A DNA stretch of 64,000 bases from Minisyncoccota bacterium (GCA_041665625.1 JBAYIK010000001.1:196341-260340), one strand, 5' to 3'; shown: positions 8,150 to 28,234, counted from the first letter of the stretch. The notes: generated from the letters alone by a model not told the origin. Program-made: numbers and translations.

Positions 8150-8518
8150 ATGATAACCGTGCCTCTGCAACAGCAATTTGTCAGGGAGGCCGCCGGCCTC
8201 ACCGACGACCAGATCGGGGCGGCCAACGAGAGCCTGCCCGAGAAAGTAGACGGGGAGGTGGTCCTCGCGGTCTTGGAAGGAGACCTCAGTCGTTTCGTGG
8301 CCCTTTCCCTCCACAAGGTCAACGCCATGGAAGATTGGTCCAAAGACCCCGCGATCAAGACCCCCGCACAGAAGGTTGCCTTCCAGAGGCAGACCGAAAT
8401 CCTGGCCCGTTGGGTCTGGGACGAGGTCGAGTATGCCTTCCCGGAGACCGCCAGGAAGGAAGGGCCTTACGCCCACAGCCTACGCCGCGGTTGGAAAGTC
8501 GTCCTCCCCTCGAAGTAA
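8150..8518 (+). CDS. hypothetical protein, member 1 of a GC-rich paralog family
   Basis: SD GAAGGAGA before the ATG at 8150 (track ORF from 8087). Shares 'GEVVLAVLEG...MEDWSKDP...LARWVWDEVEYAFPE' motifs with 11188, 25994 and 27862. GC-rich. Confidence 0.6.
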   Translation: MITVPLQQQFVREAAGLTDDQIGAANESLPEKVDGEVVLAVLEGDLSRFVALSLHKVNAMEDWSKDPAIKTPAQKVAFQRQTEILARWVWDEVEYAFPETARKEGPYAHSLRRGWKVVLPSK

Positions 8519-8533
8519 ATCAGCTCCAGTCCT

Positions 8534-8567
8534 GGCCGTCCTCTCCTAGAGGGCGGCCAAACTTTTT
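8534..8567 (+). terminator. intrinsic terminator
   Basis: GGCCGTCCTCT..AGAGGGCGGCC stem with one G-U pair, then AAACTTTTTAT. Confidence 0.6.
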
Positions 8568-8574
8568 ATAAAAA

Positions 8575-8814
8575 TTATTTAATTAGCTTTAACTTCTCAG
8601 CTCGTGACAATTTCTTCATTTCTGCTTCAGCTTGCGAGGCCAGAGAACGGCCCTTAAATTTTTTGGAGTAAACCAATTTTACCGGGCGACGAGCCGCCGT
8701 ATATTTGGCCCCCAACTTGCCACCATTATGCTCCCCCACTCGCCGCTTAAGATCCGTGGTTATCCCGGTGTAGAGAGTCTTATCAGCGCATTCAAGGATA
8801 TAAAGATAATACAT
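8575..8814 (-). CDS. GIY-YIG nuclease superfamily protein
   Basis: 'YYLYILECADKTLYTGITTDLKRRVGEH' matches the GIY-YIG motif (UPF0213-like). Confidence 0.75.
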   Translation of the reverse strand: MYYLYILECADKTLYTGITTDLKRRVGEHNGGKLGAKYTAARRPVKLVYSKKFKGRSLASQAEAEMKKLSRAEKLKLIK

Positions 8815-8871
8815 CTATTAAATTTAATTATAGCATTGATTTTTAAGATATACTGTGAGAACATTATATAT

Positions 8872-9273
8872 ATGGAATCAATAGAAAGTATCCTAAACAA
8901 TGACTGGCCCGAGAAACGGGCAACAAAAAAAGAGGGGCCAAAGACCGCTTTCGAACTTCTCGCGCAAGAGTTTGATGGAGACATGGACTTAGCCGAGAGA
9001 CGTCTGTCTGATTTTAGAGATAAATCCAGAGGAGATATAAACAATATGACCCCCTCGGGCCGCAAGAGCTGTCGCCTCTATGCAATTATATTCCTAACTC
9101 TCTACCAAGGGACCAAGCAGGGTGGTAAATATTTCTACTCAGGAATCAGCGGGCAAGGAGTAACTCCCCTACTCAATTTTGCCAAAAATGTTATTGCTAA
9201 TACCCCCGAGTTAGAAGCCGAAATTCCTAGCCGCGGATTGGGAGAGCTATTAGCTGACAGAGAGGCAGCCTAA
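8872..9273 (+). CDS. hypothetical protein
   Basis: The ATG at 8872 avoids overlap with the convergent GIY-YIG gene (track ORF from 8632). Confidence 0.45.
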   Translation: MESIESILNNDWPEKRATKKEGPKTAFELLAQEFDGDMDLAERRLSDFRDKSRGDINNMTPSGRKSCRLYAIIFLTLYQGTKQGGKYFYSGISGQGVTPLLNFAKNVIANTPELEAEIPSRGLGELLADREAA

Positions 9274-9283
9274 GAAAATTAGA

Positions 9284-9682
9284 CTAGCGATTGAGATAAG
9301 TAATCGTTAGCTGTAAGACTGTGGCAAAAGAGACCCAAAGAAGATACGGGATCTGGATATAAGTAATCCAGCGAGCATAAGGGAAAATAGCGGCCATGGC
9401 CCAGATGAGGGTGACTAAGACAAGAAGTATATCCGCTGAGGCCAAAAGATTATTCTTCAGACCAAACTGGATGGGAGTAAAAGCAAAATTAAAAACAAGA
9501 TTGAGCAAGAAAGGTAGTGCAATCAAGAGGCCAATCTTCCCTTGCCAAGCCATATAAAAAACTTTGCCAAAAGAGGCTGCAATTAAACAATAGAGAAATG
9601 TCCACACTGGGCCAAAGAGCCAAGCTGGCGGTGACCAAGTGGGTCTAATAATTGTTGAGTACCAATTGTAAGAATTATTCAT
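9284..9682 (-). CDS. tspO: TspO/MBR family tryptophan-rich sensory protein
   Basis: 'RPTWSPPAWLFGPVWTFLY' signature and 5 TM helices. Confidence 0.8.
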   Translation of the reverse strand: MNNSYNWYSTIIRPTWSPPAWLFGPVWTFLYCLIAASFGKVFYMAWQGKIGLLIALPFLLNLVFNFAFTPIQFGLKNNLLASADILLVLVTLIWAMAAIFPYARWITYIQIPYLLWVSFATVLQLTITYLNR

Positions 9683-9683
9683 A

Positions 9684-10052
9684 TTATCTTATTATACTCA
9701 AAATTTTATTCAGCCACAATTGTCGTGGGAGACGACGGAGTTCTTCTCTTATTTCCAAATGATTGGGAAAAGTTTGAGCCACCAAATTCCAAAAATTTGC
9801 CGAGTGATTGAACTCTCGCAAATGGCATAGCTCATGCACAATGATGTAGTCGGCGAGGTGTTCGGGGATTAAAGCAATTTTGTAATTAAAATTTAGATTA
9901 CCACGCGTTGAGCAACTCCCCCACCGCGTCTTCTGATTCCGAATACTAATACGCCTCACCGACACTTGATATATTGGGCTAAAATGTTCAATACGCCGCT
10001 TGGCCAAGGCTCGCGCTGCTTCACGATGTTTTAGATAGTGACTTTTCCGCAT
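9684..10052 (-). CDS. YgjP-like (DUF45) metal-dependent hydrolase
   Basis: 'HELCHLREFNHSANFW' matches the HExxH-containing DUF45/WLM-like motif. Confidence 0.7.
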   Translation of the reverse strand: MRKSHYLKHREAARALAKRRIEHFSPIYQVSVRRISIRNQKTRWGSCSTRGNLNFNYKIALIPEHLADYIIVHELCHLREFNHSANFWNLVAQTFPNHLEIREELRRLPRQLWLNKILSIIR

Positions 10053-10085
10053 TTTTTATAATCTATTATAACATAGGTCACGGGC

Positions 10086-10114
10086 TTGCAATCTTTTGTA
10101 GGCTGTGTTACACT
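10086..10114 (+). promoter_or_regulatory. sigma70-like promoter TTGCAA-17-TACACT
   Basis: Near-consensus hexamers with 17-bp spacing. The TSS is predicted near 10121 and drives the C-rich transcript. Confidence 0.55.
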
Positions 10115-10120
10115 ATGAGC

Positions 10121-10356
10121 AGGTCAAAAGCCTGGTCTTTATATCACTTATACCCGGAGTCGTGCAGTTCCCCCTCTACCCCCCCTCCATACTGCGCGAC
10201 TCCGGTCTTTCCTTTCACATTTCGATCCCCCTTCGGGACCGAACAGATACCTCCCCCTCCCCTAGACGCCGGCTGGGACTCGCTACCCTCCCCCTCCTTG
10301 GTCTTAGCCGGCCACAAATCCTCCGGATGGTGCACCCTGCGCCATCCGGTTTTTCT
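10121..10356 (+). ncRNA. unclassified structured C-rich small RNA candidate, about 236 nt
   Basis: Bounded by the promoter and a strong intrinsic terminator (CCGGATGGTGC..GCGCCATCCGG plus UUUUUCUUUU). The 14-bp hairpin 10154-10207 has a 24-nt C-rich loop. A second hairpin spans GCCGGCU..AGCCGGC. A CUUCGG tetraloop and three 'CCUCCCCCUCC'-type motifs are present. The six-frame ORFs here give only proline-rich translations. Confidence 0.5.
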
Positions 10357-10380
10357 TTTGTTTAATAAGTCCTTTCTTAT

Positions 10381-10665
10381 TTATTTGGCTTCGTCGTCAG
10401 AATTTTTCAAATCAGCCATCTGGATCGGACTCTGGATCTTGGGCGGAGTCATATCAATTGTTCCGAATTGCTTTTCATAATTAGCAATTTGATCGTTCAT
10501 CCATAAAGCAATGCTCTTCATAATTTGCGGAGTCGTGGCAAAAGAATCAAGGCTATTCCCTGAAGTTAGTGCAAAAGAAAACAAGTCTTTACCAAAGGCC
10601 CCCAGGGCCCCATCACAGAATTTCTTTGGTAGTTGATTAAAGTCTACTTGTTTGGGATCAATCAT
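10381..10665 (-). CDS. hypothetical small protein (possibly DUF3467-like)
   Basis: 94 aa; weak resemblance '...IANYEKQFGTI'. Confidence 0.45.
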   Translation of the reverse strand: MIDPKQVDFNQLPKKFCDGALGAFGKDLFSFALTSGNSLDSFATTPQIMKSIALWMNDQIANYEKQFGTIDMTPPKIQSPIQMADLKNSDDEAK

Positions 10666-10694
10666 AATTTTAAATAAATTAATTAATAAAAGGA

Positions 10695-11123
10695 TTATTT
10701 AACGACACAGTCAGTGTAAGTATTTTGATCTTGCTCTGTGATAAAAGCGGTGTCTCCCTTATTCCAAAAGACAAAGCTCTCATCCGCGCTCGCATAACGA
10801 GCGCCACTCGCCGAGATAGCTTGGGACAAAGTCATCTCTCGCCCATCACTCAACTTAAGATCAACAGCCGAGACTCCCCTTTGATAATTATGGAAAGTTG
10901 CTCCAATGCTCTTATTCCCCTCACAGACAAAGGTCGCGTTAATAACTTGCCCAGTTAAACCTTCGGATTGGACAATAGAATTAACAACCTTGGGGACCCA
11001 CGACCCACGCGTAAAGATTAAGACTAACCCGATGATAATAAGGATAAGGAGAACAATTCTAACAAGTTGAATCTTCCAACCTGAACGATAACCCCTACCC
11101 CACACATTCTTCTTTAGAATCAT
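10695..11123 (-). CDS. MliC-family (membrane-bound lysozyme inhibitor of C-type lysozyme) protein
   Basis: N-terminal TM/signal peptide. 'ATFVCEGNKSIGATF...SASGARYASADESFVFWNKGDTAFI' matches the MliC fold signature. Confidence 0.65.
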   Translation of the reverse strand: MILKKNVWGRGYRSGWKIQLVRIVLLILIIIGLVLIFTRGSWVPKVVNSIVQSEGLTGQVINATFVCEGNKSIGATFHNYQRGVSAVDLKLSDGREMTLSQAISASGARYASADESFVFWNKGDTAFITEQDQNTYTDCVVK

Positions 11124-11187
11124 GCCTATATTATATCATATAAATAACGACGCCGATTCAAGAAAAAGGTGACAAGAACCCCTAAAT

Positions 11188-11652
11188 ATGGCAGTAATTG
11201 AGCTGGAGAAGTTAACCCAACGTGCCCCAACTAAAGAGGAGAACCGAATGTTCACCGACAACACCCTTGACGAGGTAGGAGAGATCAGAAAAGTCTTTCT
11301 TGCCGTTGCCGAGGAAAAACTTCCCGACAGCCCCCCAGACGGTTTTACCGTCCTGGGTAACATCGAGGACGCGAGGCTCCGAAGACTCTGGCTTCTCATG
11401 AAGTCCAAGGCCCAGCAAATGGAGAACTGGGTCAAACCCGACAGCGGGCAAAGAGGCTTCTCCGTCACGAGTGGAGAAATCTCCAAGCTCGATAAGGAGC
11501 TGGTCTTTATCCGCCAGTTGTTCTGGCTCGAGCTACAGATGCTCTTCCCGCAGCTCGACAGAATCATCCTGTGTCCATCCGCAATGATCAAAGGCTGGCA
11601 AGTCGCGATCAAATACCCCGAACGCGACCCAGTCGATGAACTGGCGACCTAA
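11188..11652 (+). CDS. hypothetical protein, member 2 of the GC-rich paralog family
   Basis: Motifs 'GFTVLGNIED...QQMENWVKPD...FIRQLFWLELQMLFPQ' parallel 8150..8518. GC-rich. Confidence 0.6.
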   Translation: MAVIELEKLTQRAPTKEENRMFTDNTLDEVGEIRKVFLAVAEEKLPDSPPDGFTVLGNIEDARLRRLWLLMKSKAQQMENWVKPDSGQRGFSVTSGEISKLDKELVFIRQLFWLELQMLFPQLDRIILCPSAMIKGWQVAIKYPERDPVDELAT

Positions 11653-11668
11653 CCCCGGCCCACTGGCC

Positions 11669-11709
11669 ATATAGCCGTTGCCCCACCCTGGGGCCACGGC
11701 TATGTTTTT
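11669..11709 (+). terminator. intrinsic terminator (first of a tandem pair)
   Basis: ATAGCCGT-TG-CCCCACCCTGGGG-CC-ACGGCTAT then GTTTTTAT. Confidence 0.65.
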
Positions 11710-11720
11710 ATAAAAGCAGA

Positions 11721-11748
11721 AAACCGCAGGCGGGGCCTGCGGTCTTTT
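11721..11748. terminator. intrinsic terminator (second of the pair, bidirectional shape)
   Basis: ACCGCAGGC-GGG-GCCTGCGGT, flanked by AAAA on one side and CTTTT on the other. Confidence 0.6.
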
Positions 11749-11990
11749 AAGACAAGCGCGGGGGGTTGAAGGACTCAACCTCGTTCATCTCAAGAGCGAG
11801 ATAGGCGAAGCGAGCCTTGAGTGCCCAGAGAGCCTCTTCAGATAAAGTCTGAGCCGGGAAAATGGAAAGAAAGTTCCGCTTCGCGATCAAACCGTTCTGC
11901 GCCCCAGTCAGACGACGACTCGTGGGGAAGATCCCCGTATCGTCATACCAGACGATCTCATGCGGTGTAGCCTGAATCGTCTGTGGTCCT
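11747..11990 (-). pseudogene. about 80-codon open frame with no canonical start, possible gene remnant
   Basis: The minus-strand frame '...TPHEIVWYDDTGIFPTSRRLTGAQNGLIAKRNFLSIFPAQTLSEEALWALKARFAYLALEMNEVESFNPPRLS*' follows an AAGGAGG SD but has no in-frame ATG/GTG/TTG (only ATT). It lies in a GC-rich segment. Confidence 0.25.
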
Positions 11991-12057
11991 CCTTCTCTTG
12001 TTTGTGAGCAAGCCTAAGTTAATTAGACTCTCTTAAATCTTGATGTCAATTATTTAT

Positions 12058-12456: not shown

Positions 12457-12502
12457 ATTTATATTATACTCCCCCGTTTAGCCAGCGCCAATGAGATATC
12501 AA

Positions 12503-12533
12503 CATCCCAACAAACTCCAGTTTGTAAGGGTGT
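12503..12533. repeat. copy 1 of a 34-bp conserved element (CATCCCAACAAACTCCAGTTTGTAAGGRTGT)
   Basis: Contains the inverted repeat ACAAACT-CC-AGTTTGT. It lies about 45-75 bp upstream of the -10 of gene 12058..12456. Confidence 0.7.
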
Positions 12534-12554
12534 CATATAAAAAAATAAAAAAGC

Positions 12555-12860: not shown

Positions 12861-12872
12861 AGCTGTTTCTTC

Positions 12873-12906: not shown

Positions 12907-12915
12907 AAAATTTGG

Positions 12916-13419: not shown

Positions 13420-13472
13420 TTTTTTCCCCGAAGTCGTATCTCGCGTAGCCAGATCCGACTTCTTAGCTTAAC
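13420..13472. repeat. short copy of the intergenic element 'CCCCGAAGTCGTA..(loop)..ATCCGACTTCTTAGCTTAA'
   Basis: 7-bp inverted repeat GAAGTCG/CGACTTC. The minus-strand orientation gives 'GGGGAAAAAAATG' providing SD and start for 12916..13419. Related copies at 15121 and 16423. Confidence 0.6.
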
Positions 13473-13864
13473 ATTTTATAATATTCGGGATAACTTTTCT
13501 TAATAAAATTCTTCCAACAAGCTGTCTCATTACCATGACCTAAATCTTTTTTCCCATAGACAAGAAGGACTCTTACAACCCCCTTGTCTTTATGAAGAGC
13601 GACAATGCACCGATTGCCAGAACCGTGTCTTGACTCTTGAGTTCCGGAAATTTTAAATTCTGTCTTACAAATAACGATATCTGCATCTTTATCTGTTATC
13701 GGCTCAGCAATACTCTTCAAAAATAGGGCGTCAATCTTCTCAAATTCCTCAGCGATAGTCCCAAGTGTAAAGTCCCAAGCTCCCTTATACTTCTTAGCAA
13801 AAGATTTTATAAAGTGCCTCTCCGCAAAAGGCTCGAAGATAACTCTATACTTAGTAAACCTCAT
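13463..13864 (-). CDS. putative toxin partner of the Panacea-domain antitoxin (small protein, unknown family)
   Basis: About 134 aa from 'MRFTKYRVIFEPF...', overlapping the 3' end of the upstream HTH-Panacea gene by about 14 nt. The track ORF runs to 13912. Confidence 0.45.
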   Translation of the reverse strand: MRFTKYRVIFEPFAERHFIKSFAKKYKGAWDFTLGTIAEEFEKIDALFLKSIAEPITDKDADIVICKTEFKISGTQESRHGSGNRCIVALHKDKGVVRVLLVYGKKDLGHGNETACWKNFIKKSYPEYYKMLS

Positions 13865-14534
13865 GAGGATCTTCCTGTGTAATAAGAGCGTAAGAGACAA
13901 TTTCTTCATCATCAGCCATTAAATATGGCAGTTGGTTATGAGTAAAATTAACAATTTCGGCTGTTTTTTTATCTTTCCACTTTCTATGAATTTCTTTCAT
14001 TAAGTTTTCTTCCTCAGGCAAAATAGATTCTAACTTTTGTTTTTTATTACTATCTGACTCACTAATTATAATCATTTCTTTGCCATCAGCGTTCTTGCGG
14101 TCAACGATTATCTTTCCTTCTTCCTCAAGCTCATCAAGGGCTCGAAAATAAGAATCTGGAACTGGCCCATATTTAATTTTACGATACTGCATACCACTCA
14201 TGCTATTCAAATGACTATAAAACCAGGCAAAATCAGAGAGATAGACAAGTTTGGCCAATTTAGTCTTTTTAACACTTTTACCCAATCGGAGAAAAGACAG
14301 GATCATCTGCTTATATTTCTCGTAATTAGGAGACTCACCCTTCTCCATCTCTTCGAAAGGTATATTTAAAATGCCTGAGAGTTTTTCAAATTCACTCATA
14401 GACAGCTCTCTCTTCCCCTGTTCAATGGCAATATAAGAAGGACGAGAAAGACCCAATTTAGAGGCTAAGTCTAATTGGGAGAGACCTTTCTTAAGTCGAG
14501 AGGCTTTAATCAGCTTCGCGTACTTAGTAATCAT
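13851..14534 (-). CDS. HTH_XRE plus Panacea (DUF4065, SocA-like) domain protein, antitoxin-like
   Basis: 'LSQLDLASKLGLSRPSYIAIEQGKR' is Cro/C1 HTH. 'KLAKLVYLSDFAWFYSHLNSMSGMQYRKIKYGPVPD' is the Panacea signature. ATG at 14534 has a TATACT box 12 nt upstream (track ORF to 14696). Confidence 0.65.
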   Translation of the reverse strand: MITKYAKLIKASRLKKGLSQLDLASKLGLSRPSYIAIEQGKRELSMSEFEKLSGILNIPFEEMEKGESPNYEKYKQMILSFLRLGKSVKKTKLAKLVYLSDFAWFYSHLNSMSGMQYRKIKYGPVPDSYFRALDELEEEGKIIVDRKNADGKEMIIISESDSNKKQKLESILPEEENLMKEIHRKWKDKKTAEIVNFTHNQLPYLMADDEEIVSYALITQEDPHEVY

Positions 14535-14781
14535 ATACCAATAAGTATACATAAACGTGTAAATAATGCAAACATAGGTGTTGATAAGTTTGACATAAAA
14601 AATAAACGGAGTAAAATTTATAGAGGAGAGAGCCTTTTTGCGGAAATCCTCTCCCCTAAAACATAAATATCTTTTTTGCCCTTTGGGGTATTTCAACTAA
14701 ACTAATAAGTAAAAACTTTAACACTTTTATTTTACCAAATTTAGATTAATTAATAAACAAGGGTAACTAACCAAACATTCA

Positions 14782-14982
14782 ATGCCTTATTACACTCGTA
14801 ATACCGGCAAATCGTGGACACCAAAAGATGTGACGCAGTTAAAACAGCTCGTTCGTCAAAATACACCAACACGAGTCGCCGGATTCAAACTTGGCAGAAC
14901 TGAAGATGCGGTCAGAGCAGAGGCCAGTAAACTCTCCCTCAGCTTAAAGCCAACAAACCAGTCGCCGCACAATAGAAAGTAG
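14782..14982 (+). CDS. small putative DNA-binding (HTH-like) protein
   Basis: 66 aa. '...WTPKDVTQLKQLVRQNTPTRVAGFKLGRTEDAVRAEASKL' resembles sigma-70 region-4/terminase-small-subunit-like HTH. Its own terminator follows. Confidence 0.45.
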   Translation: MPYYTRNTGKSWTPKDVTQLKQLVRQNTPTRVAGFKLGRTEDAVRAEASKLSLSLKPTNQSPHNRK

Positions 14983-14996
14983 ACCTTAAATTTGAA

Positions 14997-15037
14997 AAGA
15001 AAGAACGAGACCGCAACTCGTTCTTTCTATTTTTTTA
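14997..15037 (+). terminator. intrinsic terminator
   Basis: AAGAACGAG-ACCGCAA-CTCGTTCTT then TCTATTTTTTTAT. Confidence 0.7.
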
Positions 15038-15068
15038 TCTATAATTTATGAGACTAACCTCAGTCTCC

Positions 15069-15102
15069 TCATCCCAACAAACTCCAGTTTGTAAAGATGT
15101 TT
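15069..15102. repeat. copy 3 of the 34-bp element
   Basis: TCATCCCAACAAACTCCAGTTTGTAAAGATGTTT. Confidence 0.7.
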
Positions 15103-15120
15103 AGGCGTTTTTCTTTCTTC

Positions 15121-15140
15121 TCCCCTTTTCCCCGAAGTGA
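15121..15140. repeat. partial copy of the 'CCCCTTTTCCCCGAAGT' element
   Basis: Matches the 5' part of the elements at 13420 and 16423. Confidence 0.45.
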
Positions 15141-15202
15141 GTTTTAGTTGTTATGACACATTTTACCCTTGAGACGAGGCCTGACCTCGTTTCTCTAATA
15201 AA

Positions 15203-16342
15203 TTAATCTGCTATATCAATATCAGGGATATCTCCATAATACTGGAGTGCCCGAAGTATTGCCGGAAAAAGGGTGGAATCAGATACCGGATGCATGACAA
15301 AAGGAGGGAGAGCTTGCAAGTTCTGTCCAGAAGAAGCCTTCTCGTCAGCCTGGTAATGAAAAGAGAAATTAGTGAAATACAACGCATTCCAAGCAGAAGG
15401 ATTTTCTTTTGTAACATTTTTGGAATGAGAGGCATTTTTAAAGATATTTTTCACCCACGGTATCTTTTTAAAATCCCCTGATTCTTCATGTGGTACATTT
15501 ATATCAACAAAGACAAGAAAAGGCATCTTGCCACACTCTGTTTTTTTAAAGGCCTGGTTAAGGAGACGTTGGATACCTCCGCCATTAATTTTGGACCCAT
15601 TAACATCTCCTGGGGTATGAAGGATTCCAGGCCTGTGCCTACTTTTAGCTTCGACGGCGATTTCTACTCCTGACTCTTGATGTGTGGCAATAAATTCACA
15701 ATGTGGCTCTGAATGGTCTTCTTCATCTAGCCATCTTATATTAAAACCTAATCGCGCAATGATTGCAGCAATCATAATTTCGTATCTTGCCCCTTGATAT
15801 TCTAACGGCGTTTTAAGACGACCAAGAAGAAAGTCAGGTATTCTAGAAACATGTCTTAGTGTTGAAATATCAAAAGCAAGAGAAATTAAAGATTTAGTCC
15901 ACCCGTTTGGAGGAGCCTCTAATACGCCAGGGGTTTTATAATTAGGTTTAGCCAAGAGTTCTTTTTTCCATTCATCAAATTTCAAAAAACATTTCACAAT
16001 AAAATGTTGATCTTCCCACAACAGAGACTGTTGCTCATTAATCCATTCGAAACTCAAAGTATCTTTAAGAATAAATTGAATAAAATCATGAAAGGTCTCA
16101 TCAGAATTTTCGCTAAGATATACTTGATTACCAATTGCCCAGACTTTTTTCCCTTTGTGAATTACCGGGTTAACATAATTAATATAAATCCCTTTTTGCT
16201 TAAGAAGATTTTCTTTTTCTCGTATTTTTTTAAAATGTAAGAGTACTTCCATGGGAACAGGTGAGTTATCTTCATCCATATGACATTTTTTATATTTCTT
16301 ACCACTTCCACAGTGGCAAAGCTGGTTTCTTCCTAATTTCAT
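15203..16342 (-). CDS. SEC-C metal-binding motif protein with possible PD-(D/E)xK nuclease-like core
   Basis: N-terminal 'CHCGSGKKYKKCH' (SEC-C). The central 'EPHCEFIATHQESGVEIAVEAKSRH' resembles an E..ExK restriction-endonuclease-like signature. No other recognised domain. Confidence 0.55.
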   Translation of the reverse strand: MKLGRNQLCHCGSGKKYKKCHMDEDNSPVPMEVLLHFKKIREKENLLKQKGIYINYVNPVIHKGKKVWAIGNQVYLSENSDETFHDFIQFILKDTLSFEWINEQQSLLWEDQHFIVKCFLKFDEWKKELLAKPNYKTPGVLEAPPNGWTKSLISLAFDISTLRHVSRIPDFLLGRLKTPLEYQGARYEIMIAAIIARLGFNIRWLDEEDHSEPHCEFIATHQESGVEIAVEAKSRHRPGILHTPGDVNGSKINGGGIQRLLNQAFKKTECGKMPFLVFVDINVPHEESGDFKKIPWVKNIFKNASHSKNVTKENPSAWNALYFTNFSFHYQADEKASSGQNLQALPPFVMHPVSDSTLFPAILRALQYYGDIPDIDIAD

Positions 16343-16422
16343 AATAATTTATTTTTTAATCATGTCCTCACAACACACCACGTTGTTCAACAGAATTGAA
16401 TCAATGGGAACGACCCCATTAA

Positions 16423-16541
16423 TCCCCTTTTCCCCGAAGTCGTACTTCAAGCGCTTGCCCTGCGCCGTGCCGGCCATAGCTTTAGCGAAGACTAGAAGCT
16501 TCGGTGAAGTAGGGAGCTCGAAATCCGACTTCTTAGCTTAA
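16423..16541. repeat. long copy of the intergenic element (same ends as 13420..13472, with an extra internal segment of about 75 nt)
   Basis: 'CCCCTTTTCCCCGAAGTCGTA' ... 'ATCCGACTTCTTAGCTTAA'. Lies between the methyltransferase and SEC-C genes. Confidence 0.6.
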
Positions 16542-17812
16542 GAAACAAAATCCAAGAGAGACTTTCCAAGCCTCTCAATAACTCCAACGACCAGAGCATT
16601 ACCCATAATAAAGGCTCTTTTTGTGTCTGGGGTAACTTTTCCATTTAACATAAATTTTGTGTGGTCAGAAGGAAACATGTTTAACTTCTCCAACTCAAGT
16701 GGGGTAAGCCGGCGAAGCCTGCCAGATTTAGTCTTAATGACGTGTTTAAAGCGCGAGGGAGAACTTCCACCTTCCCCCGTCACAATTGTTCTGGATGGCT
16801 TATCAAGAGAATCAGGAAAAGCCATTGGGCCTTCTGAGTAATCATATTCAAACCCATCTTTTGATTTCCGCCCCTCTTTCTTTCCACCTTTTAAATATTC
16901 CCATCTTTTTTGATCAGCCTTTTTTATAAAAAATTCTTCTGGAATTTTTGCTTCGTCGTGAATAATAATATTTTTAAGTAAAATAGACTTACCATTATAA
17001 TTAGGCACAGATTTTACTGAGTAGACTTTTCTATCAATCATAACTCCGGAAACATCAAAAGGGCTTTTAGTTGGTTTATTTGAAGAAAAATTCTTAGATA
17101 TTTCCTCCAGACTTCCCTCAATTCTAAATTCGCCCAATTTACCTTCACCTTTTTTCACAGGGAAAGCTTTAGCAATTACTCCATCTTTGTAAATCCAATT
17201 TTCAAGATTTTTTTCTTTTTTAATAGCATTAAAAATCTTACTGCCTTTTTTATACCCCATAATAAAAACTCTTCTCCTTCTTTGCGGCATCCCGTAATCG
17301 GCCGCATTTACAACCCTCCATTCAACTGCATAACCAAGATAAGAAAGAGAGGTCAGCATAACAGCAAAATCTCGACCTCTCTGTCCTGAAGGGGATTTTA
17401 ATAATCTATCGACATTCTCTAACATTAAAAAGTTCGGGGAATTTTTTCCTTTTTTATTTAAGATATTATAAATAGACCACCATAAAACACCTTTCTTACC
17501 ATAGATACCCTTAGCCTGGTTCGCTGTTCTCGCAACAGAATAATCCTGACAAGGAAATCCCCCGACAAGTAAATCATGGTCAGGTATTTCTTTAAATTTA
17601 TTTTCAACGACATCTTGGATATCTTCACAAGAATGTCCCTCTTCTCCAAATATGTTTATATAAATCTGAGAAGCATGTTGTGTAGCTGCCCCTGGTTCCC
17701 ATTGGCTATTCCATACTGTCTCATATTTTAAGTCTTTTTTACTTGCAGCATCAAGGCCAAGGCGGAAGCCCCCAACACCGGCAAAAAGCTCAAGGACTCT
17801 TATTTTCTTCAT
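16538..17812 (-). CDS. DNA (cytosine-5)-methyltransferase
   Basis: Motif I 'LFAGVGGFRLGL', motif IV 'GGFPCQDYS', motif VI 'ENVDRLL'. Adjacent to a Sau3AI-like endonuclease. Confidence 0.85.
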   Translation of the reverse strand: MKKIRVLELFAGVGGFRLGLDAASKKDLKYETVWNSQWEPGAATQHASQIYINIFGEEGHSCEDIQDVVENKFKEIPDHDLLVGGFPCQDYSVARTANQAKGIYGKKGVLWWSIYNILNKKGKNSPNFLMLENVDRLLKSPSGQRGRDFAVMLTSLSYLGYAVEWRVVNAADYGMPQRRRRVFIMGYKKGSKIFNAIKKEKNLENWIYKDGVIAKAFPVKKGEGKLGEFRIEGSLEEISKNFSSNKPTKSPFDVSGVMIDRKVYSVKSVPNYNGKSILLKNIIIHDEAKIPEEFFIKKADQKRWEYLKGGKKEGRKSKDGFEYDYSEGPMAFPDSLDKPSRTIVTGEGGSSPSRFKHVIKTKSGRLRRLTPLELEKLNMFPSDHTKFMLNGKVTPDTKRAFIMGNALVVGVIERLGKSLLDFVS

Positions 17813-17843
17813 AAAGAGATTCTAACAGATAGCGTCAAAAAGA

Positions 17844-19247
17844 TCAATATTGATCTTTTTGGTTTTCTATGGCCTGCTGTATATACTTAGCATTTAACCA
17901 AAAACACCGTTTCATTTCCTGTGTTTTTTGGGGAGTTTCAATGGTATCTGTACTGTCTTTCCCGTGAGGTCGAACGTGGGCAACAGGACTTTCCTTCATT
18001 TTTGGCAAATCTTCGTACCGACCATCCTTAATACAATCAACTGTTTTTTGCCAGACCTTTTCTACCTCACCAATGTCTTTCATCGGAAAATTCCAGAAGA
18101 AGGTTTTCTTCAATATTATATTTTTACTCCTCTTTTCCTTTTGAAAAACGACAAATAAAAACTTCTTTGTCTCCAGCTGTAAATGAAACTCGGCCATAGT
18201 TTCGTCTTCTTCGTCAAACCACAAATCATTTACTAAACTTTTGTAGTCGAATGCAGGAAAAGAAATAGATTCTCTTAGTGTCCCGGTGTGTTCAAGAGTA
18301 ATGACTCTAAGTGTAATGTTGGCCTTCTCTAATTCCTCTACATTATTTGATTCAACGTCTAATATCCTGTTAACAATTAATCTTTTGTAACTCTTTGATT
18401 TTTTGCCGAGACTTGAATTTAACTTAGCTAGTATCTCCGTGTCTGTTTTGCCAATAAATTGGCTAAATTTTTCTTTAACAACATCTTCAATTGTTTCAAT
18501 TCTCCGGTGTTTCTTAAAGATTGAGTCAGTATTTGTTTTTTCTCCAAGCAGTTTAGTCTGAATAAGGTAATTGATATATTGCTGTTTAAAAGAAAAGGCT
18601 CTCGGTTTCGCAGCGATGCGCCCCATCGGCTGATCCCTAACAACTCGGCTATTAGCCGCTTTAGTGCAAGCTCCCAGATAATAAGTATCTCCCTCAGAGA
18701 GCAAGTGGGCTTCCCCTCGTTTAATCTTATTTACTATATATTCCCAGTCTTTTTTAATCTGAAAAACATCTTCGTCGGAAATATCCTCAAGGAGCTTCAG
18801 CAAATGGACAAACTTGAACTCATAATCAAGGATACTTTGACTTTCAATCCAAAGATAGAACATCAGTAGTAAAGTTTTATTCTTTTTTAGGAAAGAGCTT
18901 TGTTCCCAGGTCTCACCGACAACGGTATCATAATTAATCATTGAAAAGACGAGACGCTCCTTAGAGGAGAGCTTACCGGTGTTGTGTTTTTTTAGAGGAG
19001 TAGTCTTCAGCTCAACACTCGCAACAGTAAAATCTGGTTCACTTATATTACCTGGATTGATTTCGAAAAAATATTTTTCCATTAAATCACCCAAAAAACC
19101 TTTGCGTTTCAATCCGTACCCACCAATTTGTTCTTCAATTGCCCCGAGACTTCCAGAAGGGATGACTTGGCGCAAAGACTTTTGCAAAATAGTCTTTGCT
19201 TTCTCTAAAACCTGTTCTTTTGTGTTATATGTTTGAGACATGTTCAA
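17844..19247 (-). CDS. Sau3AI/MutH-family type II restriction endonuclease (GATC-type predicted)
   Basis: 'EPDFTVASVELKTTPLKKHNTGKLSSKERLVFSMINYD', 'EAHLLSEGDTYYLGACTKAANSRVVRDQPMGRIAAKPRAFSFK' and C-terminal 'HVRPH...FWLN' parallel the MutH/Sau3AI catalytic and duplicated domains as I recall them. Confidence 0.7.
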   Translation of the reverse strand: MNMSQTYNTKEQVLEKAKTILQKSLRQVIPSGSLGAIEEQIGGYGLKRKGFLGDLMEKYFFEINPGNISEPDFTVASVELKTTPLKKHNTGKLSSKERLVFSMINYDTVVGETWEQSSFLKKNKTLLLMFYLWIESQSILDYEFKFVHLLKLLEDISDEDVFQIKKDWEYIVNKIKRGEAHLLSEGDTYYLGACTKAANSRVVRDQPMGRIAAKPRAFSFKQQYINYLIQTKLLGEKTNTDSIFKKHRRIETIEDVVKEKFSQFIGKTDTEILAKLNSSLGKKSKSYKRLIVNRILDVESNNVEELEKANITLRVITLEHTGTLRESISFPAFDYKSLVNDLWFDEEDETMAEFHLQLETKKFLFVVFQKEKRSKNIILKKTFFWNFPMKDIGEVEKVWQKTVDCIKDGRYEDLPKMKESPVAHVRPHGKDSTDTIETPQKTQEMKRCFWLNAKYIQQAIENQKDQY

Positions 19248-19900
19248 ATATTAGAAATAAAACTTGCCGACAAAGTTTTAGAAACCACAACATGATCAAC
19301 GACTTTAATGTCTAAGATTTTCCCCGCACTGATTAGCTTCTTAGTAACCTCGATGTCATCAGCGGAGGGTTCAAGGTCGCCAGAGGGATGATTATGAGAA
19401 ATTATAATTGAAGAGGCGTTATTTTTAATGGCTCCCTCAAAGACTTCTCGAGGATGAACAAGGCTTTCATTAAGAGTGCCAATTGAAATAATATCTCTTT
19501 GTATTTCTTGGTTACGGCTATCCAGGTAAAAAACAACAAAGTGCTCCTTTTTGCTTCCCCTTATGTCCTCCATCCTCTCCCAGACATCTTTTGGGGAAAG
19601 TAATATAGAGGATTTCTTGTCTTTCAACATCCTTTTGCCAAGCTCAAAACAGGCCATAATTTCACAAGCTTTTGCCGAACCTAGGCCATGGATAGTTTTT
19701 AATTCATCAATACTTATATCAACAAATTTTTCGTTTTCAAATTTCTGTAAGATTTTTTGAGCTAGTTTTAGCACATTCAAATCTTTTGTACCAGTACGAA
19801 GCAAAATCGCCAGCAATTCGACGTCAGATAATTTGCCCGGACCATACTTTTCCATCTTCTCTCTTGGTCTATCAACACGGGGTAAATCCTTAATTTTCAT
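19244..19900 (-). CDS. radC: RadC-like JAB/MPN domain protein
   Basis: 'HNHPSGDLEPSADDIEVTKKL' is the JAMM motif. HhH-like N-terminus. Confidence 0.8.
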   Translation of the reverse strand: MKIKDLPRVDRPREKMEKYGPGKLSDVELLAILLRTGTKDLNVLKLAQKILQKFENEKFVDISIDELKTIHGLGSAKACEIMACFELGKRMLKDKKSSILLSPKDVWERMEDIRGSKKEHFVVFYLDSRNQEIQRDIISIGTLNESLVHPREVFEGAIKNNASSIIISHNHPSGDLEPSADDIEVTKKLISAGKILDIKVVDHVVVSKTLSASFISNI

Positions 19901-19996
19901 AATTTATTTTCCTATTCTACCACATTTCTCGCCTTTTTACGATAAACCAAAACACCCCCGAAGGGAAGGGTGTTTTGAGTAAGTACCTAGAATTAT

Positions 19997-20293
19997 CTAG
20001 ATTACCTTCCAGAGAAATTTACGATAAGCGGGAGAGAGGTCCGCCCAAGATTTAAAGGCTTTATATTGAGCAATGGATTGTTGAGAATTTTTTGAATCAA
20101 TCGTCTCAATCTCAATAACGACTTCAGCATTCCCATTCCGTACGTAAACATCAGGAATATAGCCATTAATAACTGGCGGTTTATTGTTTCCGGGCAAATC
20201 CGAATAAACAACAGGCCAACCAGCACGAACATATTGAGAAGCAATATTTGCCACTTCAGTATCGTGGATAACTTGATTTTCTTTTGGTCTCAT
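19997..20293 (-). CDS. hypothetical small protein (weak PD-(D/E)xK-like 'IPDVYV...EVVIEIE')
   Basis: 98 aa with a flanking hairpin terminator at 19945-19975. Function unknown. Confidence 0.4.
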   Translation of the reverse strand: MRPKENQVIHDTEVANIASQYVRAGWPVVYSDLPGNNKPPVINGYIPDVYVRNGNAEVVIEIETIDSKNSQQSIAQYKAFKSWADLSPAYRKFLWKVI

Positions 20294-20334
20294 TAGGTTT
20301 ATAATTAGTTTGTTATTTAGGTTCTTCCGACCTT

Positions 20335-20380
20335 TAATAAAAACAGCGAGACCGAAGGGGCTCGCTGTTTTTATTTTATT
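20335..20380. terminator. bidirectional-shaped intrinsic terminator
   Basis: ACAGCGAG-ACCGAAGGGG-CTCGCTGT flanked by an A-run and TTTTTATTTT. Confidence 0.6.
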
Positions 20381-20581
20381 AAAATTTAGTTTTTGAACTT
20401 ATAGCGTGATCGAAAGCAATAGGGTGGGCTTTTTACGTAAAAAATAACGCTTAGAGTCACCTTCGATAATTCTTTGATAAATTGTAGAAGAACTTATGGA
20501 TCCATTATAAAAACAACGATAAATAGCCCCTTTTGGGGACAAAATGTTCATAAAAAGGGACTATCCCAACAAATATTGAAT

Positions 20582-21427
20582 CTAAACCGGGCAGGTATTC
20601 TTACCCAACGCCGTATACAGGCCACACCAACTGAAAATCGCTTCGAAGAGGCAGAAGCCGGAGAAGAAGAGGATTAGCGGATTCCAAGTGGTGAGGATGG
20701 CGAAGAAGAAGAGGGCGACCGCTAGGGCCAAACGAATTAGCCGATCTCTCTTGCCAATATTTTGGGAGCGACCTCGGACCGAGCGCTCGGCAAAGAATTT
20801 GGCCAAGGAGCGATAAGCGAAGCCGACAATGAAGGCGAGGGCAAACATTAACAAGATTAAGCCCCAACCGAAGGGTGAATAGATAAAATTGGCCGGTGAC
20901 TTACCAAAAAAGTCTCGCTTGAGTTGTGGCAAAACTTTATAAACATTCACCGTCTCAGCAAAAGAGAAACTCTCAATCTCGCCAACCGCCAAAGCATACT
21001 TACCTTTGTTCAGAGGACTAGTAACGATAACTTCATAATCCCCCGCCAGAGCTTGGGACTTATACTCTGGGCCGCGCCAATAATCATCATAGCCAAACTC
21101 TTCATGATACTTCTCCCAATTAGAATCTTGTCCGCCCAAGACGGCCAATTGTTCCCCAGCGCGGGAAACAGTCGCTGAGATATCTCGCGGAGGAAGCGCC
21201 CCTGTGCCCGTCTCTTGATATGGCAACAAAATATTAACATAGAGGGCAAAAGCTTTGTCTGAATGAATTTTATAAATCACCGGCTCCCCCGCCAGTTGCC
21301 CATAATAGGCCTTGGAGATCTCTGGTTCCGTCACGATAATTGGATTGCTGGTGGCGAGGCGGGGTTGATGAGCGAGGGCGAGGGTGGGTGTGAGGAGAAG
21401 AAGGAAGAGGAGGAGATATTTTTTCAT
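20582..21427 (-). CDS. hypothetical secreted/membrane protein
   Basis: Signal peptide 'MKKYLLLFLLLLTPTLALA' (start at 21427, track to 21460). C-terminal TM helices. Confidence 0.55.
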   Translation of the reverse strand: MKKYLLLFLLLLTPTLALAHQPRLATSNPIIVTEPEISKAYYGQLAGEPVIYKIHSDKAFALYVNILLPYQETGTGALPPRDISATVSRAGEQLAVLGGQDSNWEKYHEEFGYDDYWRGPEYKSQALAGDYEVIVTSPLNKGKYALAVGEIESFSFAETVNVYKVLPQLKRDFFGKSPANFIYSPFGWGLILLMFALAFIVGFAYRSLAKFFAERSVRGRSQNIGKRDRLIRLALAVALFFFAILTTWNPLILFFSGFCLFEAIFSWCGLYTALGKNTCPV

Positions 21428-21429
21428 GT

Positions 21430-22500: not shown

Positions 22501-22531
22501 CGGCGGCTAGAAAAAACTCGAACACTATCCC

Positions 22532-22840
22532 CTACTTGTCGGTGCGGTGATAGTCCCGGCCCTCGCGCAAGGCCTTCTTGCGGAGTTGAGCGTTCCGAAC
22601 GCCGGCTGTGGTCTTGCCGACCAGCCCGAAGGCATCGGCCTGAAGCCCGGCCTCGCGGACATGAAAGGGTGTCTTACCAGCAACAAGCGTCGCCTTGCTC
22701 CGTTCGCCGACGTCGTCGCCATGAGAGACCTTGCTCCCCGTGTAGGCGACTTTGGCCTTCTTCGCCTTGGCCTTCTTGCTGGTCGTACGGGAAAGTCTGG
22801 TCCCTTTTTTCTTTTTCTCCTTGCTCTTCTTTTTCGGCAA
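22532..22840 (-). CDS. lysine-rich basic hypothetical protein (GC-rich insert)
   Basis: AAGGAGG SD 5 nt before an in-frame TTG at 22840 (track ATG at 22906). 'PKKKSKEKKKKG...KKAKAKKAK' tail. Opposite-strand ORFs overlap it. Strand chosen on the SD. Confidence 0.45.
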   Translation of the reverse strand: MPKKKSKEKKKKGTRLSRTTSKKAKAKKAKVAYTGSKVSHGDDVGERSKATLVAGKTPFHVREAGLQADAFGLVGKTTAGVRNAQLRKKALREGRDYHRTDK

Positions 22841-22943
22841 AATGACCTCCTTCTCGCTATGACGCCATGAGCAATTCATGTGCGTCGGTTTGTTATTGTC
22901 CAACAAGAATCTACCACAAAACCAGCGGGCCTGGCAAGATTAC

Positions 22944-24937: not shown

Positions 24938-24971
24938 CTTAGAATTATAACAAAAAGAAGATCACTTGGCG

Positions 24972-25460: not shown

Positions 25461-25526
25461 ATTTATTATTTTAACTTAATAATTATTAATAATGAAACTA
25501 AAAAATCCCGCGGTCTGCGGGATTTT

Positions 25527-25841
25527 CTACTTGCCGATTTTGGCAATGGAGACTTTAGTAAAGGGTTGTCGGTGCCCAGCCTTCTTGTGATGACGGACCT
25601 TGGCTTTATACTTAACAACGACGATCTTCTTGTTGCGGCCATCAGCCTCGAACTTGGCGGTAACTGTCGCCCCATCTAAGTAAGGGGTACCAAGCTGAAC
25701 TTTGTCACCATCAACAATGAGAAGCACTTTATCAAAAACAACCTCACCTTTGGCCTTAGCCTCGGCTAGTTTCTCGACTTGCAAAAGGTCGCCCTCGGCG
25801 ACTTTATACTGTTTTCCACCTGTTTCGATAATTGCGAACAT
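25527..25841 (-). CDS. rplU: 50S ribosomal protein L21
   Basis: '[18 protein letters not shown]...[16 protein letters not shown]'. Start at the internal Met (track to 25859). Confidence 0.9.
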
Positions 25842-25993
25842 AACCCTAGTATTATACACATGGGGCGGGAAAAATCAAGAGTTTGCCCCCTTAGGCCTTT
25901 GGGGATATAGTAAAAGAGGAATTGCAAATATAGTGATGTTCGCCGCAAATTGAAAAAAGGTCAAGAGGAGCCAAAACCAGAAGGAGAATACCC

Positions 25994-26662
25994 GTGGCAG
26001 ACCCCAAACAGAAAGAGAAAACCCCAAGGAGGCAGCTAAGTCCCGACTGTCGGGCAAAGGTCTCCAAAGCCTGGGCCCAATGCCTCGCCGACCCCGAAAC
26101 CCCAACCCCCTTTGCCCAAGGGACCCACGCTGTCTACAACGGGAGCACAATCCCCAACCTCATCATTGAGGGAATCAGGGGCCAGATGGAAGATGAGGGA
26201 AAGTTCTTCAAGCCCGAGGACGAGGTCAGCATTTTCTTCGAGATCAGCGGGGTAGTTCTTCCCCGACACCTGACAGTGACCGGAGGACTAGAGAGCTTCC
26301 TCATGGAGATCGAAGACCAGTTCTTGAACGGCTGGCCCTTCCAAGGTGAGAAGCCTGGTGCGAAGAGAACGCTCAGCGATATCGTTCGACTAAGGGTCAA
26401 GACCGCGATCAAGGAATCGGTGAGCAACGCCAACGTCGCGAGAGAAGACGTCGCGGGGATCTTGGCAACCGAGATCATGAGCAAGTACTACCTCGAAACC
26501 GAGGAGACCTCGGCTGAGCTCTTCGCCGTCTTCGACACGGTGATGGACAGTCTGGGTCAGAGAGGCCTCGAAGAATTCTTTGACAGCTTCGAATCCGAAG
26601 TCCTCAACCACCCCCTGCTGAAAGATGCTCCGCCCGAGCAACAGGAGATCCCCGAGACTTGA
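25994..26662 (+). CDS. hypothetical protein, member 3 of the GC-rich paralog family
   Basis: 'GVVLPRHLTVTGGLESFLMEIEDQFLNGWPFQGEKPG' parallels 'G.VVL...L...ME.W.KP' of the other members. GC-rich. Confidence 0.55.
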   Translation: MADPKQKEKTPRRQLSPDCRAKVSKAWAQCLADPETPTPFAQGTHAVYNGSTIPNLIIEGIRGQMEDEGKFFKPEDEVSIFFEISGVVLPRHLTVTGGLESFLMEIEDQFLNGWPFQGEKPGAKRTLSDIVRLRVKTAIKESVSNANVAREDVAGILATEIMSKYYLETEETSAELFAVFDTVMDSLGQRGLEEFFDSFESEVLNHPLLKDAPPEQQEIPET

Positions 26663-26678
26663 TCTCCCTCAATTTGCA

Positions 26679-26715
26679 AACGCCGCGGCTAACCCCCGCG
26701 GCGATTGTGTTTTAT
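26679..26715 (+). terminator. intrinsic terminator
   Basis: CGCCGCGG-CTAACCC-CCGCGGCG then ATTGTGTTTTAT. Confidence 0.65.
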
Positions 26716-26734
26716 ATAAAATACGAACAAAAAA

Positions 26735-27796
26735 TTAATCGTCTAAGCTTGGCTTTTCTATCAACTCCGGTTCAAAACCGGCCGAGGCACCCGTGACCCG
26801 CATTACGTCCTTGTCCACTTTCTTAAGCTCCTTATAGGCCAAATTATAGTGATTTACCGAGGTTCCCAGAGCATTCCCCAGCTTGGCCATATAGCCCTCA
26901 TAAGCCCCTATATGCTTGCCTAGCTCCTCGACCCTCTTACGTATCTCCTTGGCCGATTCTTCGATCTGGAGGGCTTTTAGGCCCTGTAGGACGGTCTGTA
27001 GATAGGCCAGGAAGCTCGTCGGGGAGACGATAATAACGTGATATTTAGAGGCGGCCCGCTGGATGAGATTCTCAGTATTCTCGTCCTGGAGGGCCCCAAT
27101 TTTGTTAATTAGAAGGTCATAATAAATGGCCTCGTGGGGGATGAACATGAAGGCAAACTCCATAGTCCCCTGGTCGGGCTGAACATATTTGGCCGTCTCG
27201 GTAATACGATTCTTGAGGTCATTCACAAAGACTTTCTCATACTTCTCTTTCTCAGTCTCATTCCTCTCCCCCACTATGCGATTATAATTTTCTAGAGAAA
27301 ACTTAGAGTCGATCGGGATTATTTTATCTTTGACAAAAACCACAGCATCAACAATGGTGCCATCAGAAAAAGGATATTGCATCTGATAAGAGCCCGGGGG
27401 CATAATATTCTTGAGCAAGGTCTCGAGATAATACTCCCCCACTATCCCGCGCTGTTTAGGATTTTTTAAAATATCTTGAAGTGATTGAAGTTGATCGGTG
27501 AAGTTAACAACTTGTTTATTGGTCTCTTCTAGCCTGACAAGTTTTTCTGTCACCTCTCGAGACAATCTAGAAAATTCATTAAACTGCGAGCGCACGTTCT
27601 CAGCGGACATTTTGTTAGTCTCGAGCAAACGACTGTCGATAGTTTTGGTAAGATTCTCAATCTGATTCTGCAAGAGCATCATCGCACTATTATCTTGAGG
27701 CTTAATTGTCTCCTTCTGTCCCAATAAACGCAAAGCAATAAAAGCCAGACTGAAGCCCGCGACGAGAGCAATAATGACAAAGATTATGGTGTTCAT
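26735..27796 (-). CDS. rmuC: DNA recombination protein RmuC
   Basis: N-terminal TM, long coiled coil, RmuC C-terminal domain. Confidence 0.8.
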   Translation of the reverse strand: MNTIIFVIIALVAGFSLAFIALRLLGQKETIKPQDNSAMMLLQNQIENLTKTIDSRLLETNKMSAENVRSQFNEFSRLSREVTEKLVRLEETNKQVVNFTDQLQSLQDILKNPKQRGIVGEYYLETLLKNIMPPGSYQMQYPFSDGTIVDAVVFVKDKIIPIDSKFSLENYNRIVGERNETEKEKYEKVFVNDLKNRITETAKYVQPDQGTMEFAFMFIPHEAIYYDLLINKIGALQDENTENLIQRAASKYHVIIVSPTSFLAYLQTVLQGLKALQIEESAKEIRKRVEELGKHIGAYEGYMAKLGNALGTSVNHYNLAYKELKKVDKDVMRVTGASAGFEPELIEKPSLDD

Positions 27797-27861
27797 AATT
27801 TACATTGTAACAAAAATCTAATATAACTAAAGAGGATATAGACATCCAGAAAGGAGTAAGT

Positions 27862-28194
27862 ATGGCTGAAGATATCTGGGAATTCGACGCACCAAAGAAC
27901 CCCTTCAGGCCAGAAGTGGTCCTTGAGGTCTGCACTTGCGGTAAGTGTGGCAAATCTGGTGTCCCTGTTGGGAGGCTCATTGGGGATCCCGAGTCTCCAC
28001 CACTAGAAGTAAGCTTCTCAAGGCCAAGTGCCCGAGTAATGGCTAAGGGGCTCTGGGAAGCGGGAATGATCAACAAGCCCAACTACCTCTTCTTGCTTAG
28101 ACAGATTTCTCGGTCGGAGATGGCAGACAGACTCCTCGAGAGAGATGAAAAAAAGAGAGAGGAAAATCTCTCCGACTTCTGCGAGAAGGGTTAA
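27862..28194 (+). CDS. hypothetical protein, member 4 of the GC-rich paralog family
   Basis: SD AAAGGAG. 'PEVVLEVCTCG...MAKGLWEAGM' parallels 'GEVVLAVLEG...LARWVWDEV' of 8150..8518. Confidence 0.55.
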   Translation: MAEDIWEFDAPKNPFRPEVVLEVCTCGKCGKSGVPVGRLIGDPESPPLEVSFSRPSARVMAKGLWEAGMINKPNYLFLLRQISRSEMADRLLERDEKKREENLSDFCEKG

Positions 28195-28234
28195 CCGGTC
28201 GCACCCACAAAGGGTGCGACCGGATTATTTTTTA
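28194..28234 (+). terminator. intrinsic terminator
   Basis: CCGGTCGCACCC-ACAAA-GGGTGCGACCGG then ATTATTTTTT. Confidence 0.75.

Follow-up and report, generated by a model that had tools for sequence, protein, structure and literature searches.

A 64,000-nt stretch of DNA from a Minisyncoccota bacterium (GCA_041665625.1, JBAYIK010000001.1:196341-260340; hereafter the window) raises the question of whether four small, GC-rich genes, here lettered A to D, belong to one family, and whether they are foreign inserts. An earlier reading of the sequence (the original prediction) had described them as four paralogues, each with its own terminator, resembling phage morons or a dispersed selfish or defence-related cargo. 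Judging from the Pfam annotation of neighbouring genes, the window is ordinary chromosomal DNA of a Candidatus Paceibacterota metagenome-assembled genome, a lineage of the candidate phyla radiation (CPR). CPR bacteria are uncultivated episymbionts, and a large share of their genes has no assigned function. All four open reading frames (ORFs; locus tags WCV68_01065, WCV68_01095, WCV68_01195 and WCV68_01205) are annotated as hypothetical proteins, and all are open on the plus strand at the coordinates originally given. As described below, the four very probably resolve into a two-member family (A and B) and two orphans (C and D), in a conserved Paceibacterota backbone containing small strain-variable islets. 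The comparisons were made against a sister genome, represented by JGI contig Ga0373117_0325751 (L001 and L002).

The features of the four genes are as follows; promoters and transcript ends are consensus-level predictions.

8068..8097, plus strand: promoter-like site of A, TTGACA-18-AATAAT (consensus scan); the -35 box and all sequence upstream are kept in the sister genome
8150..8518, plus strand: gene A, 122 aa; the annotation begins at 8087 and gives 143 aa; a GTG at 8159 is also possible as start; member of the A/B family
8533..8559, plus strand: predicted terminator of A, -23.2 kcal/mol; 88% identity in the sister genome
11169..11198, plus strand: promoter-like site of B, GTGACA-18-AGTAAT, found by eye; layout as at A
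11248..11652, plus strand: gene B, 134 aa; 154 aa in the annotation, which begins at 11188; paralogue of A
11669..11705, plus strand: predicted terminator of B, -33.3 kcal/mol for the folded stretch
25994..26662, plus strand: gene C, 222 aa, acidic (pI 4.7), GTG start; not related to A/B
26681..26703, plus strand: predicted intrinsic terminator of C
27862..28194, plus strand: gene D, 110 aa, ORFan
28195..28223, plus strand: predicted terminator of D, -27.2 kcal/mol, z -8.3

Pairwise and profile alignments of the four proteins gave significance for A and B alone. A and B are 24-27% identical over their full length (BLASTP 24%, E 1e-4), and every pair involving C or D gave a BLASTP E value above 1. 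A hidden Markov model (HMM) of the A/B family scores A at 5e-30 and B at 2e-33, and it matches neither C nor D even at E<=10; profile-profile alignment to the family by hhalign gave probabilities of 0.25% for C and 0.11% for D. When 23 orphan proteins from the window and the sister genome were compared with one another, the only group consisted of A, B, the sister protein found at the position of A, and a half-length sister copy. Judged on these alignments, only A and B are homologous, with C and D unrelated to A/B and to each other, and the proposal of four paralogues is rejected. The three motif pairs originally matched between A and B do fall within aligned columns of the true A/B alignment. 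A common GC-richness and short look-alike motifs are therefore, as a caution, no indication of paralogy.

The sequences around the coding regions help to define where A and B begin. The annotated ATG of A (8087) lies inside the spacer of the TTGACA-18-AATAAT site, and the sister genome reads ATG TTC TAG at this position; because of both observations, 8150 (or the GTG at 8159) is the likelier start, as the original prediction had it. For B the predicted start was 11188, which coincides with the annotation; because the architecture is the same as at A, a start at 11248 is probable for B. A translated N-terminal extension of both proteins was considered and rejected, the likeness of residues 1-21 being due to the shared promoter elements. 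Well-spaced Shine-Dalgarno (SD) sequences can be read at all four genes (AAGGAG at 8144-8149 for A, GAGGAG at 11236-11241 for B, AAGGAG at 25981-25986 for C and AAGGAG at 27851-27856 for D), and a T-tailed terminator hairpin stands just 3' of the stop codon in all four (-18 to -33 kcal/mol, z -3.2 to -8.3), in good agreement with the SD sites and GC-stem terminators described previously. Of the two tandem terminators that had been assigned to B, the one at 11669..11705 is its own; the other (11720..11746) belongs to a convergent minus-strand gene. Promoter-like sites were seen at A and B; C and D were not scanned. A and B would each form a monocistronic unit composed of a sigma-70-like promoter, a leader of ~50 nt, an SD sequence, the ORF and an intrinsic terminator, with predicted transcription starts at about 8104 and about 11205, respectively.

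By their sequences, A and B represent, in two diverged copies, a small cytoplasmic domain of ~120 aa that was hitherto undescribed and unannotated. The family was sampled by one exhaustive HMMER search of 1.84e9 (1.84 billion) representatives with a two-sequence profile, which returned 15 distant relatives with E values of 1.8e-5 to 8.4e-4. All of these are singleton clusters from metagenomes; they range from 122 to 330 aa, five of them carry two tandem domains, and the match to A and B starts past the second Met of each. One further match, to a 2708-aa repeat protein, was judged spurious. The family motifs are G[ED]xV[IL]G...RxL[YFW]xL, [LI]FWxxVxxxFP and [IL]RxGWxVV, with W90 and W115 of the FW and GW motifs as the invariant residues. 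The conserved positions comprise the two Trp, hydrophobic residues and a few Arg and Gly, and a catalytic-looking set is absent; because the conservation is hydrophobic and structural in this way, a non-enzymatic binding module is suggested. The family alignment contains no conserved stretch of 7-10 columns, and a word-indexed protein search with the A+B profile recovered only A and B themselves. Neither protein has a Pfam, NCBIfam or PDB sequence match; the best PDB profile match, Borrelia P35 (E 0.019), was confined to the N-terminal helices and is regarded as spurious.

Structure prediction, proposed in the original prediction as a check, gave a confident AlphaFold2 model of A, with a predicted local distance difference test score (pLDDT) of 90 and a predicted template modelling score of 0.82. 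In the model, two short helices precede strand 1, which is followed by a long helical hairpin and then by strands 2 and 3. A Foldseek search of the model against PDB and BFVD found nothing below E 0.39. An unannotated small-protein family with a confidently predicted fold unmatched in PDB or BFVD is a modest but real outcome. The genomic context of relatives had also been suggested as a test, and in part agrees with the idea of isolated genes beside terminators: in four other contigs the family member stands alone, with its own terminator, flanked by unrelated housekeeping genes. The flanking genes are SecA and an ABC exporter; FtsX and an ABC ATPase; a hypothetical protein and M14 peptidases; and a hypothetical protein and ICMT. 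One of the member contigs has PriA-Def-Fmt synteny in common with the window. The family appears to be one of CPR-type bacteria.

Comparison with the sister genome indicates how these genes are placed in the chromosome. The two genomes are 80-88% identical at the nucleotide level outside discrete islets, and A, B and D lie exactly in islets of replacement or indel. At the A islet (8076-8530), sequence upstream through the -35 box is conserved and the terminator region (8531-8579) is 88% identical, and the leader and coding sequence between them cannot be aligned with the sister. The sister ORF in this slot, P0022 (122 aa, GC3 [GC content at third codon positions] 0.76), is itself a member of the A/B family, with 26% protein identity to A; neighbouring genes are 82-99% identical at the protein level, and those adjacent to the A slot 85-94%. 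A second, half-length family member lies tail-to-tail with P0022 in the sister. Because the untranslated leader is scrambled along with the coding sequence, replacement of the whole cassette is favoured over divergence in place, and on this single comparison the transcribed cassette at the A slot appears to have been replaced by recombination across its conserved flanks. The A slot would then keep a fixed promoter and terminator, the exchanged leader and coding sequence still encoding the same family at 26% identity, and as such it offers a clean example of conserved regulatory flanks around a swapped transcribed cassette. A stand-alone GIY-YIG nuclease-domain protein of ~80 aa (8575..8814, minus strand; L002 13573..13821, minus strand) adjoins the A slot in both genomes.

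The other two islets differ in content. At the B islet (10971-11716, corresponding to L002 15217..16938) the sister carries metK, encoding S-adenosylmethionine synthetase, and a longer MliC-domain protein; a tblastn search found no metK anywhere in the 64-kb window. At the D islet (27797-28223) the sister carries an unrelated ORF of 119 aa. Two lineages enter this comparison: among the RecR-cluster contigs, L011 and L012 represent the L002 population and L008 that of the window, and they contribute no extra alleles. A contig scan with the neighbouring C39 peptidase yielded one distant locus and no further syntenic genomes, and an exact 24-mer from the conserved region upstream of A had no match in the metagenome contigs, a collection from which the sister contig is evidently missing. 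No integrase, transposase or repeat boundary was found at the islet junctions examined.

C is placed differently. It lies within an uninterrupted, 85.8%-identical block extending from L21 to RmuC, and its orthologue occupies the same place in the sister genome, 84% identical and with a nonsynonymous-to-synonymous substitution rate ratio (dN/dS) of 0.15. This substitution pattern marks C as a real, constrained backbone gene under purifying selection and not an insert. A word-indexed protein search with C found the one 84%-identical orthologue only, and the AlphaFold2 model of C, built from a two-sequence alignment, has a pLDDT of 48 and was uninformative. The same search with D returned only D itself, and D is an unrelated, lineage-specific ORFan; neither protein has a Pfam, NCBIfam, PHROGs, PADLOC or PDB sequence match. 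The description of all four genes as single-gene, self-terminated, foreign inserts can thus be kept in part: the units are autonomous, their composition is atypical, and A, B and D are in islets, but C is conserved backbone.

For D above all, it might be asked whether some of these ORFs are non-coding, being either RNAs or spurious frames of GC-rich DNA. GC-rich blocks in this region contain long overlapping ORFs on both strands, for one such block (10070..10369) a structured RNA, rather than a gene, is the best reading, and D has no homologue and a weak contrast in GC content by codon position (0.55/0.42/0.57). This explanation is nevertheless highly improbable, as A and B are conserved at the protein level across distant relatives and have a confidently predicted fold, C has the dN/dS given above, an SD sequence and start followed by a same-strand terminator are present in four of four cases, and NCBI and JGI both call genes. 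The values for A (0.66/0.40/0.79) are consistent with coding on the plus strand.

The genes had been described as far more GC-rich than their surroundings. All four are indeed above the 43.5% of the window (A 61.5%, B 54.3% or 53.5% if counted from 11188, C 56.8%, D 51.4%), with GC3 of 0.79, 0.70, 0.73 and 0.57 for A, B, C and D, respectively. Measured against 200-nt windows (mean GC 0.435, standard deviation [sd] 0.065), A lies about 2.8 sd above the mean, C 2.0 sd, B 1.7 sd and D only about 1.2 sd, and GC-richness is not confined to the four: other GC-rich segments of the region include a CPA2 antiporter gene (57%), the minus-strand small gene 3' of B, ORFs at 22532..22906 and 31903..32577 (both minus strand) and a C-rich insert. 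The CPA2/Kef-type cation:proton antiporter, which has a TrkA_N domain (2547..4304, plus strand; GC3 0.74), is conserved in the sister genome; either it was imported long ago, or its locus is subject to whatever process raises GC in the orphans.

Recent horizontal import from a donor of high GC, such as the host of the episymbiont, would account for this composition, the likeness of A and B then reflecting a shared donor. The GC3 values of 0.70-0.79 and the GARP-rich, FYMINK-poor proteins of the GC-rich genes are as expected after a long stay in a GC-richer genome, and A, B and D are located in islets. We consider this origin rather unlikely, however, as no close homologue was found among 5.8e9 clusters and the distant A/B relatives reside in contigs of 40-47% GC. 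Furthermore, C and the CPA2 antiporter retain high GC3 in both sister lineages, even though the synonymous divergence (dS) of C is ~0.6 or more, and their composition is therefore old and stable. High GC seems to have characterized certain genes for a long time and is no mark of the common descent of the four. Such genes may come from a pool richer in GC or, following an idea of Lassalle et al. 2015 (PMC4450053), may undergo GC-biased gene conversion where recombination is frequent.

The autonomy of the units bears on the original proposal that all four derive from phages as morons, or form a dispersed cargo of selfish or defence type, inserted singly. Like phage morons, the units are single genes with their own terminators, odd composition and presence/absence polymorphism between close relatives; the resemblance in promoter, terminator and composition holds at the consensus level, with promoter-like sites seen at A and B only. 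In addition, A, B and D occupy variable islets, a defence island (Dcm plus a MutH-like nuclease, HTH-SocA, RadC) lies between B and C, and the GC-rich islet gene at 31903..32577 (minus strand), by a tRNA gene, matches a PHROG 'moron' membrane-protein family. Morons sit in prophages, however, whereas A-D are found amid housekeeping genes: the flanks encode RecR, C39 peptidase, TspO, YgjP, MliC, L21, RmuC and a GT2 glycosyltransferase, which is not a prophage location, and the Pfam-annotated neighbours (among them RecR, two C39-like peptidases, TspO, YgjP, MliC, DUF2177, L21, RmuC, glycosyltransferases and a Mur ligase) include no integrase.

Database searches gave a similar picture. A megablast search of positions 7000-29500 against phage and plasmid collections was empty, A-D have no PHROG match, no IMG/VR relative of A-D was found by a method that detects close relatives only, and tblastn of B and C, the two proteins tested, found nothing among INPHARED phages. 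Against the PADLOC-DB v2 defence models none of the four gave a match at E<=0.01, and the suggested defence-related cargo is thus not borne out. With no homology among the four beyond A-B, with C in the backbone, and with no integrase, transposase or repeat boundary at the examined junctions, an origin of all four as morons or cargo is highly unlikely.

Other known types of gene unit resemble A-D in part. Integron cassettes are likewise strain-variable and consist of a single ORF and a hairpin-forming element, but they are arrayed with attC sites, whereas the A-D units are scattered over 20 kb and have their own SD sequences, T-tailed terminators and, for A and B, promoter-like sites; no formal attC model was run in this comparison. 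An arrangement as type II toxin-antitoxin or immunity pairs, with a co-oriented partner next door in one operon, is not seen, as each of A-D is flanked by opposite-strand genes and ends in its own terminator. Hypervariable immunity-type or allelic-replacement loci are known, for example the orphan immunity genes of polymorphic toxin systems. A and B resemble these in being small, non-enzymatic cytoplasmic proteins with paralogues, tandem-domain forms and a fixed slot with divergent alleles, but they differ in having no toxin gene, Imm/SUKH domain or conserved partner, and the likeness is one of evolutionary behaviour only.

From this evolutionary behaviour, the paralogy, the tandem-domain forms and the lack of catalytic residues, a function can be suggested tentatively: A and B may be fast-evolving, non-enzymatic binding or immunity-like proteins, although we regard this as a doubtful assignment. 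The protein would act by binding a fast-changing partner, in the manner of an immunity, inhibitor or host-interaction factor. Fast-turnover, self-contained small genes of this kind could plausibly encode factors that interact with host or phage. A more far-reaching proposal, which we consider unlikely as a whole, is that A/B represents a new Patescibacteria-restricted fold carried in 'expression slots' of fixed promoter and terminator, with entire transcribed cassettes swapped between lineages by recombination, serving as a population-specific binding or immunity protein in conflicts with host, phage or competitors, and with GC-richness as the footprint of gene conversion.

Several observations weigh against the interpretation given here. 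Leaving A, B and P0022 out of the HMM still gave 57.5 bits for B and 49.1 bits for A, with no other match in the window, but this test is partly circular as the relatives were chosen with the A+B profile. The preference for replacement over extreme divergence in place draws on one comparison and the scrambled leader. GC-richness is not a property of the family, because members in the four other contigs are only 0-10 GC points above their own loci. Nor is high GC tied to islets, as it is also found in the backbone genes C and CPA2 antiporter, and some islets, such as 8836..9273 and that of DUF2177, have average GC, with the defence island being low (37%). A and B have no conserved neighbour, partner gene or known domain.

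Three further elements of the region were noted.

11747..11977, minus strand: small gene of ~76 aa; sister orthologue of 77 aa at L002 16969..17202 (minus strand); terminator 11720..11746
10070..10369, plus strand: C-rich insert of ~300 bp, absent from the sister genome; no gene called
31903..32577, minus strand: membrane protein of 224 aa, 57% GC, GC3 0.75; in an islet differing from the sister

The first of these had been noted as a frame without a start codon (11747..11990) following B. This frame meets a stop on the plus strand, and the segment is really a conserved minus-strand gene that converges on B and begins 'TPHEIVWYDDTGIFPTSRRLTGAQNGLIAKRNF...' in the sister. In the window its ATG is changed to ACG, the next codon being an ATT 9 nt after GGAGGA, and the gene is not called there, leaving either a non-canonical start or a recent pseudogene. 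No Pfam or NCBIfam match was found for it.

In the C-rich insert, a promoter-like TTGCAA-17-TACACT is followed by a ~240-nt RNA candidate and a terminator (10323..10349). The predicted fold of this RNA (-89.9 kcal/mol, z -8.4) consists of stacked hairpins with CCCCCUCC (anti-SD-like) motifs in large loops. In Rfam it matches ar14 (RF02344) over the full model with 25.5 bits (E 0.0058), below the gathering threshold of 58.8, and Atu_C10 (RF02497) is also a sub-threshold match. A three-motif scan of metagenomes for relatives gave more than 120 unspecific matches, none of them related by nhmmer or blastn. The ar14 or 'cuckoo' (CcsR-type) small RNAs (sRNAs) share the stacked hairpins, the CCUCC-rich anti-SD-like loops and the terminator with the insert, which is itself isolated. 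As they are alphaproteobacterial, whereas the insert belongs to another phylum, scores below threshold and is without relatives, it is probably an analogue rather than a homologue, and may be the counterpart, in a CPR bacterium, of cuckoo/CcsR-like sRNAs.

The membrane protein gene at 31903..32577 matches phrog_1486 ('moron, auxiliary metabolic gene and host takeover; membrane protein') with an E value of 1.4e-10. It lies beside tRNA-Glu(CTC) (32724..32796, minus strand), and no other gene here has a phage-type relative.

Between 6000 and 33000 the plus strand carries A, B, C, D, a 145-aa islet ORF (8836..9273), a 66-aa ORF (14782..14982) and the C-rich RNA, and the backbone genes are nearly all on the minus strand. 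In the sister genome, seven of the eight orphans compared are on the plus strand of the aligned loci, and six of those seven are GC-rich. The plus-strand orphans may be insulated head-on insertions between operons. The defence or mobilome island (13420..20582, ~37% GC) encodes an HTH-SocA/Panacea antitoxin-like protein, a SEC-C protein, Dcm with a MutH/Sau3AI-like nuclease, RadC and an AHJR-like protein; at the same position the sister carries a different set, consisting of an 860-aa SMC_N/AAA_21 protein, GmrSD and an EcoRI-type methylase.

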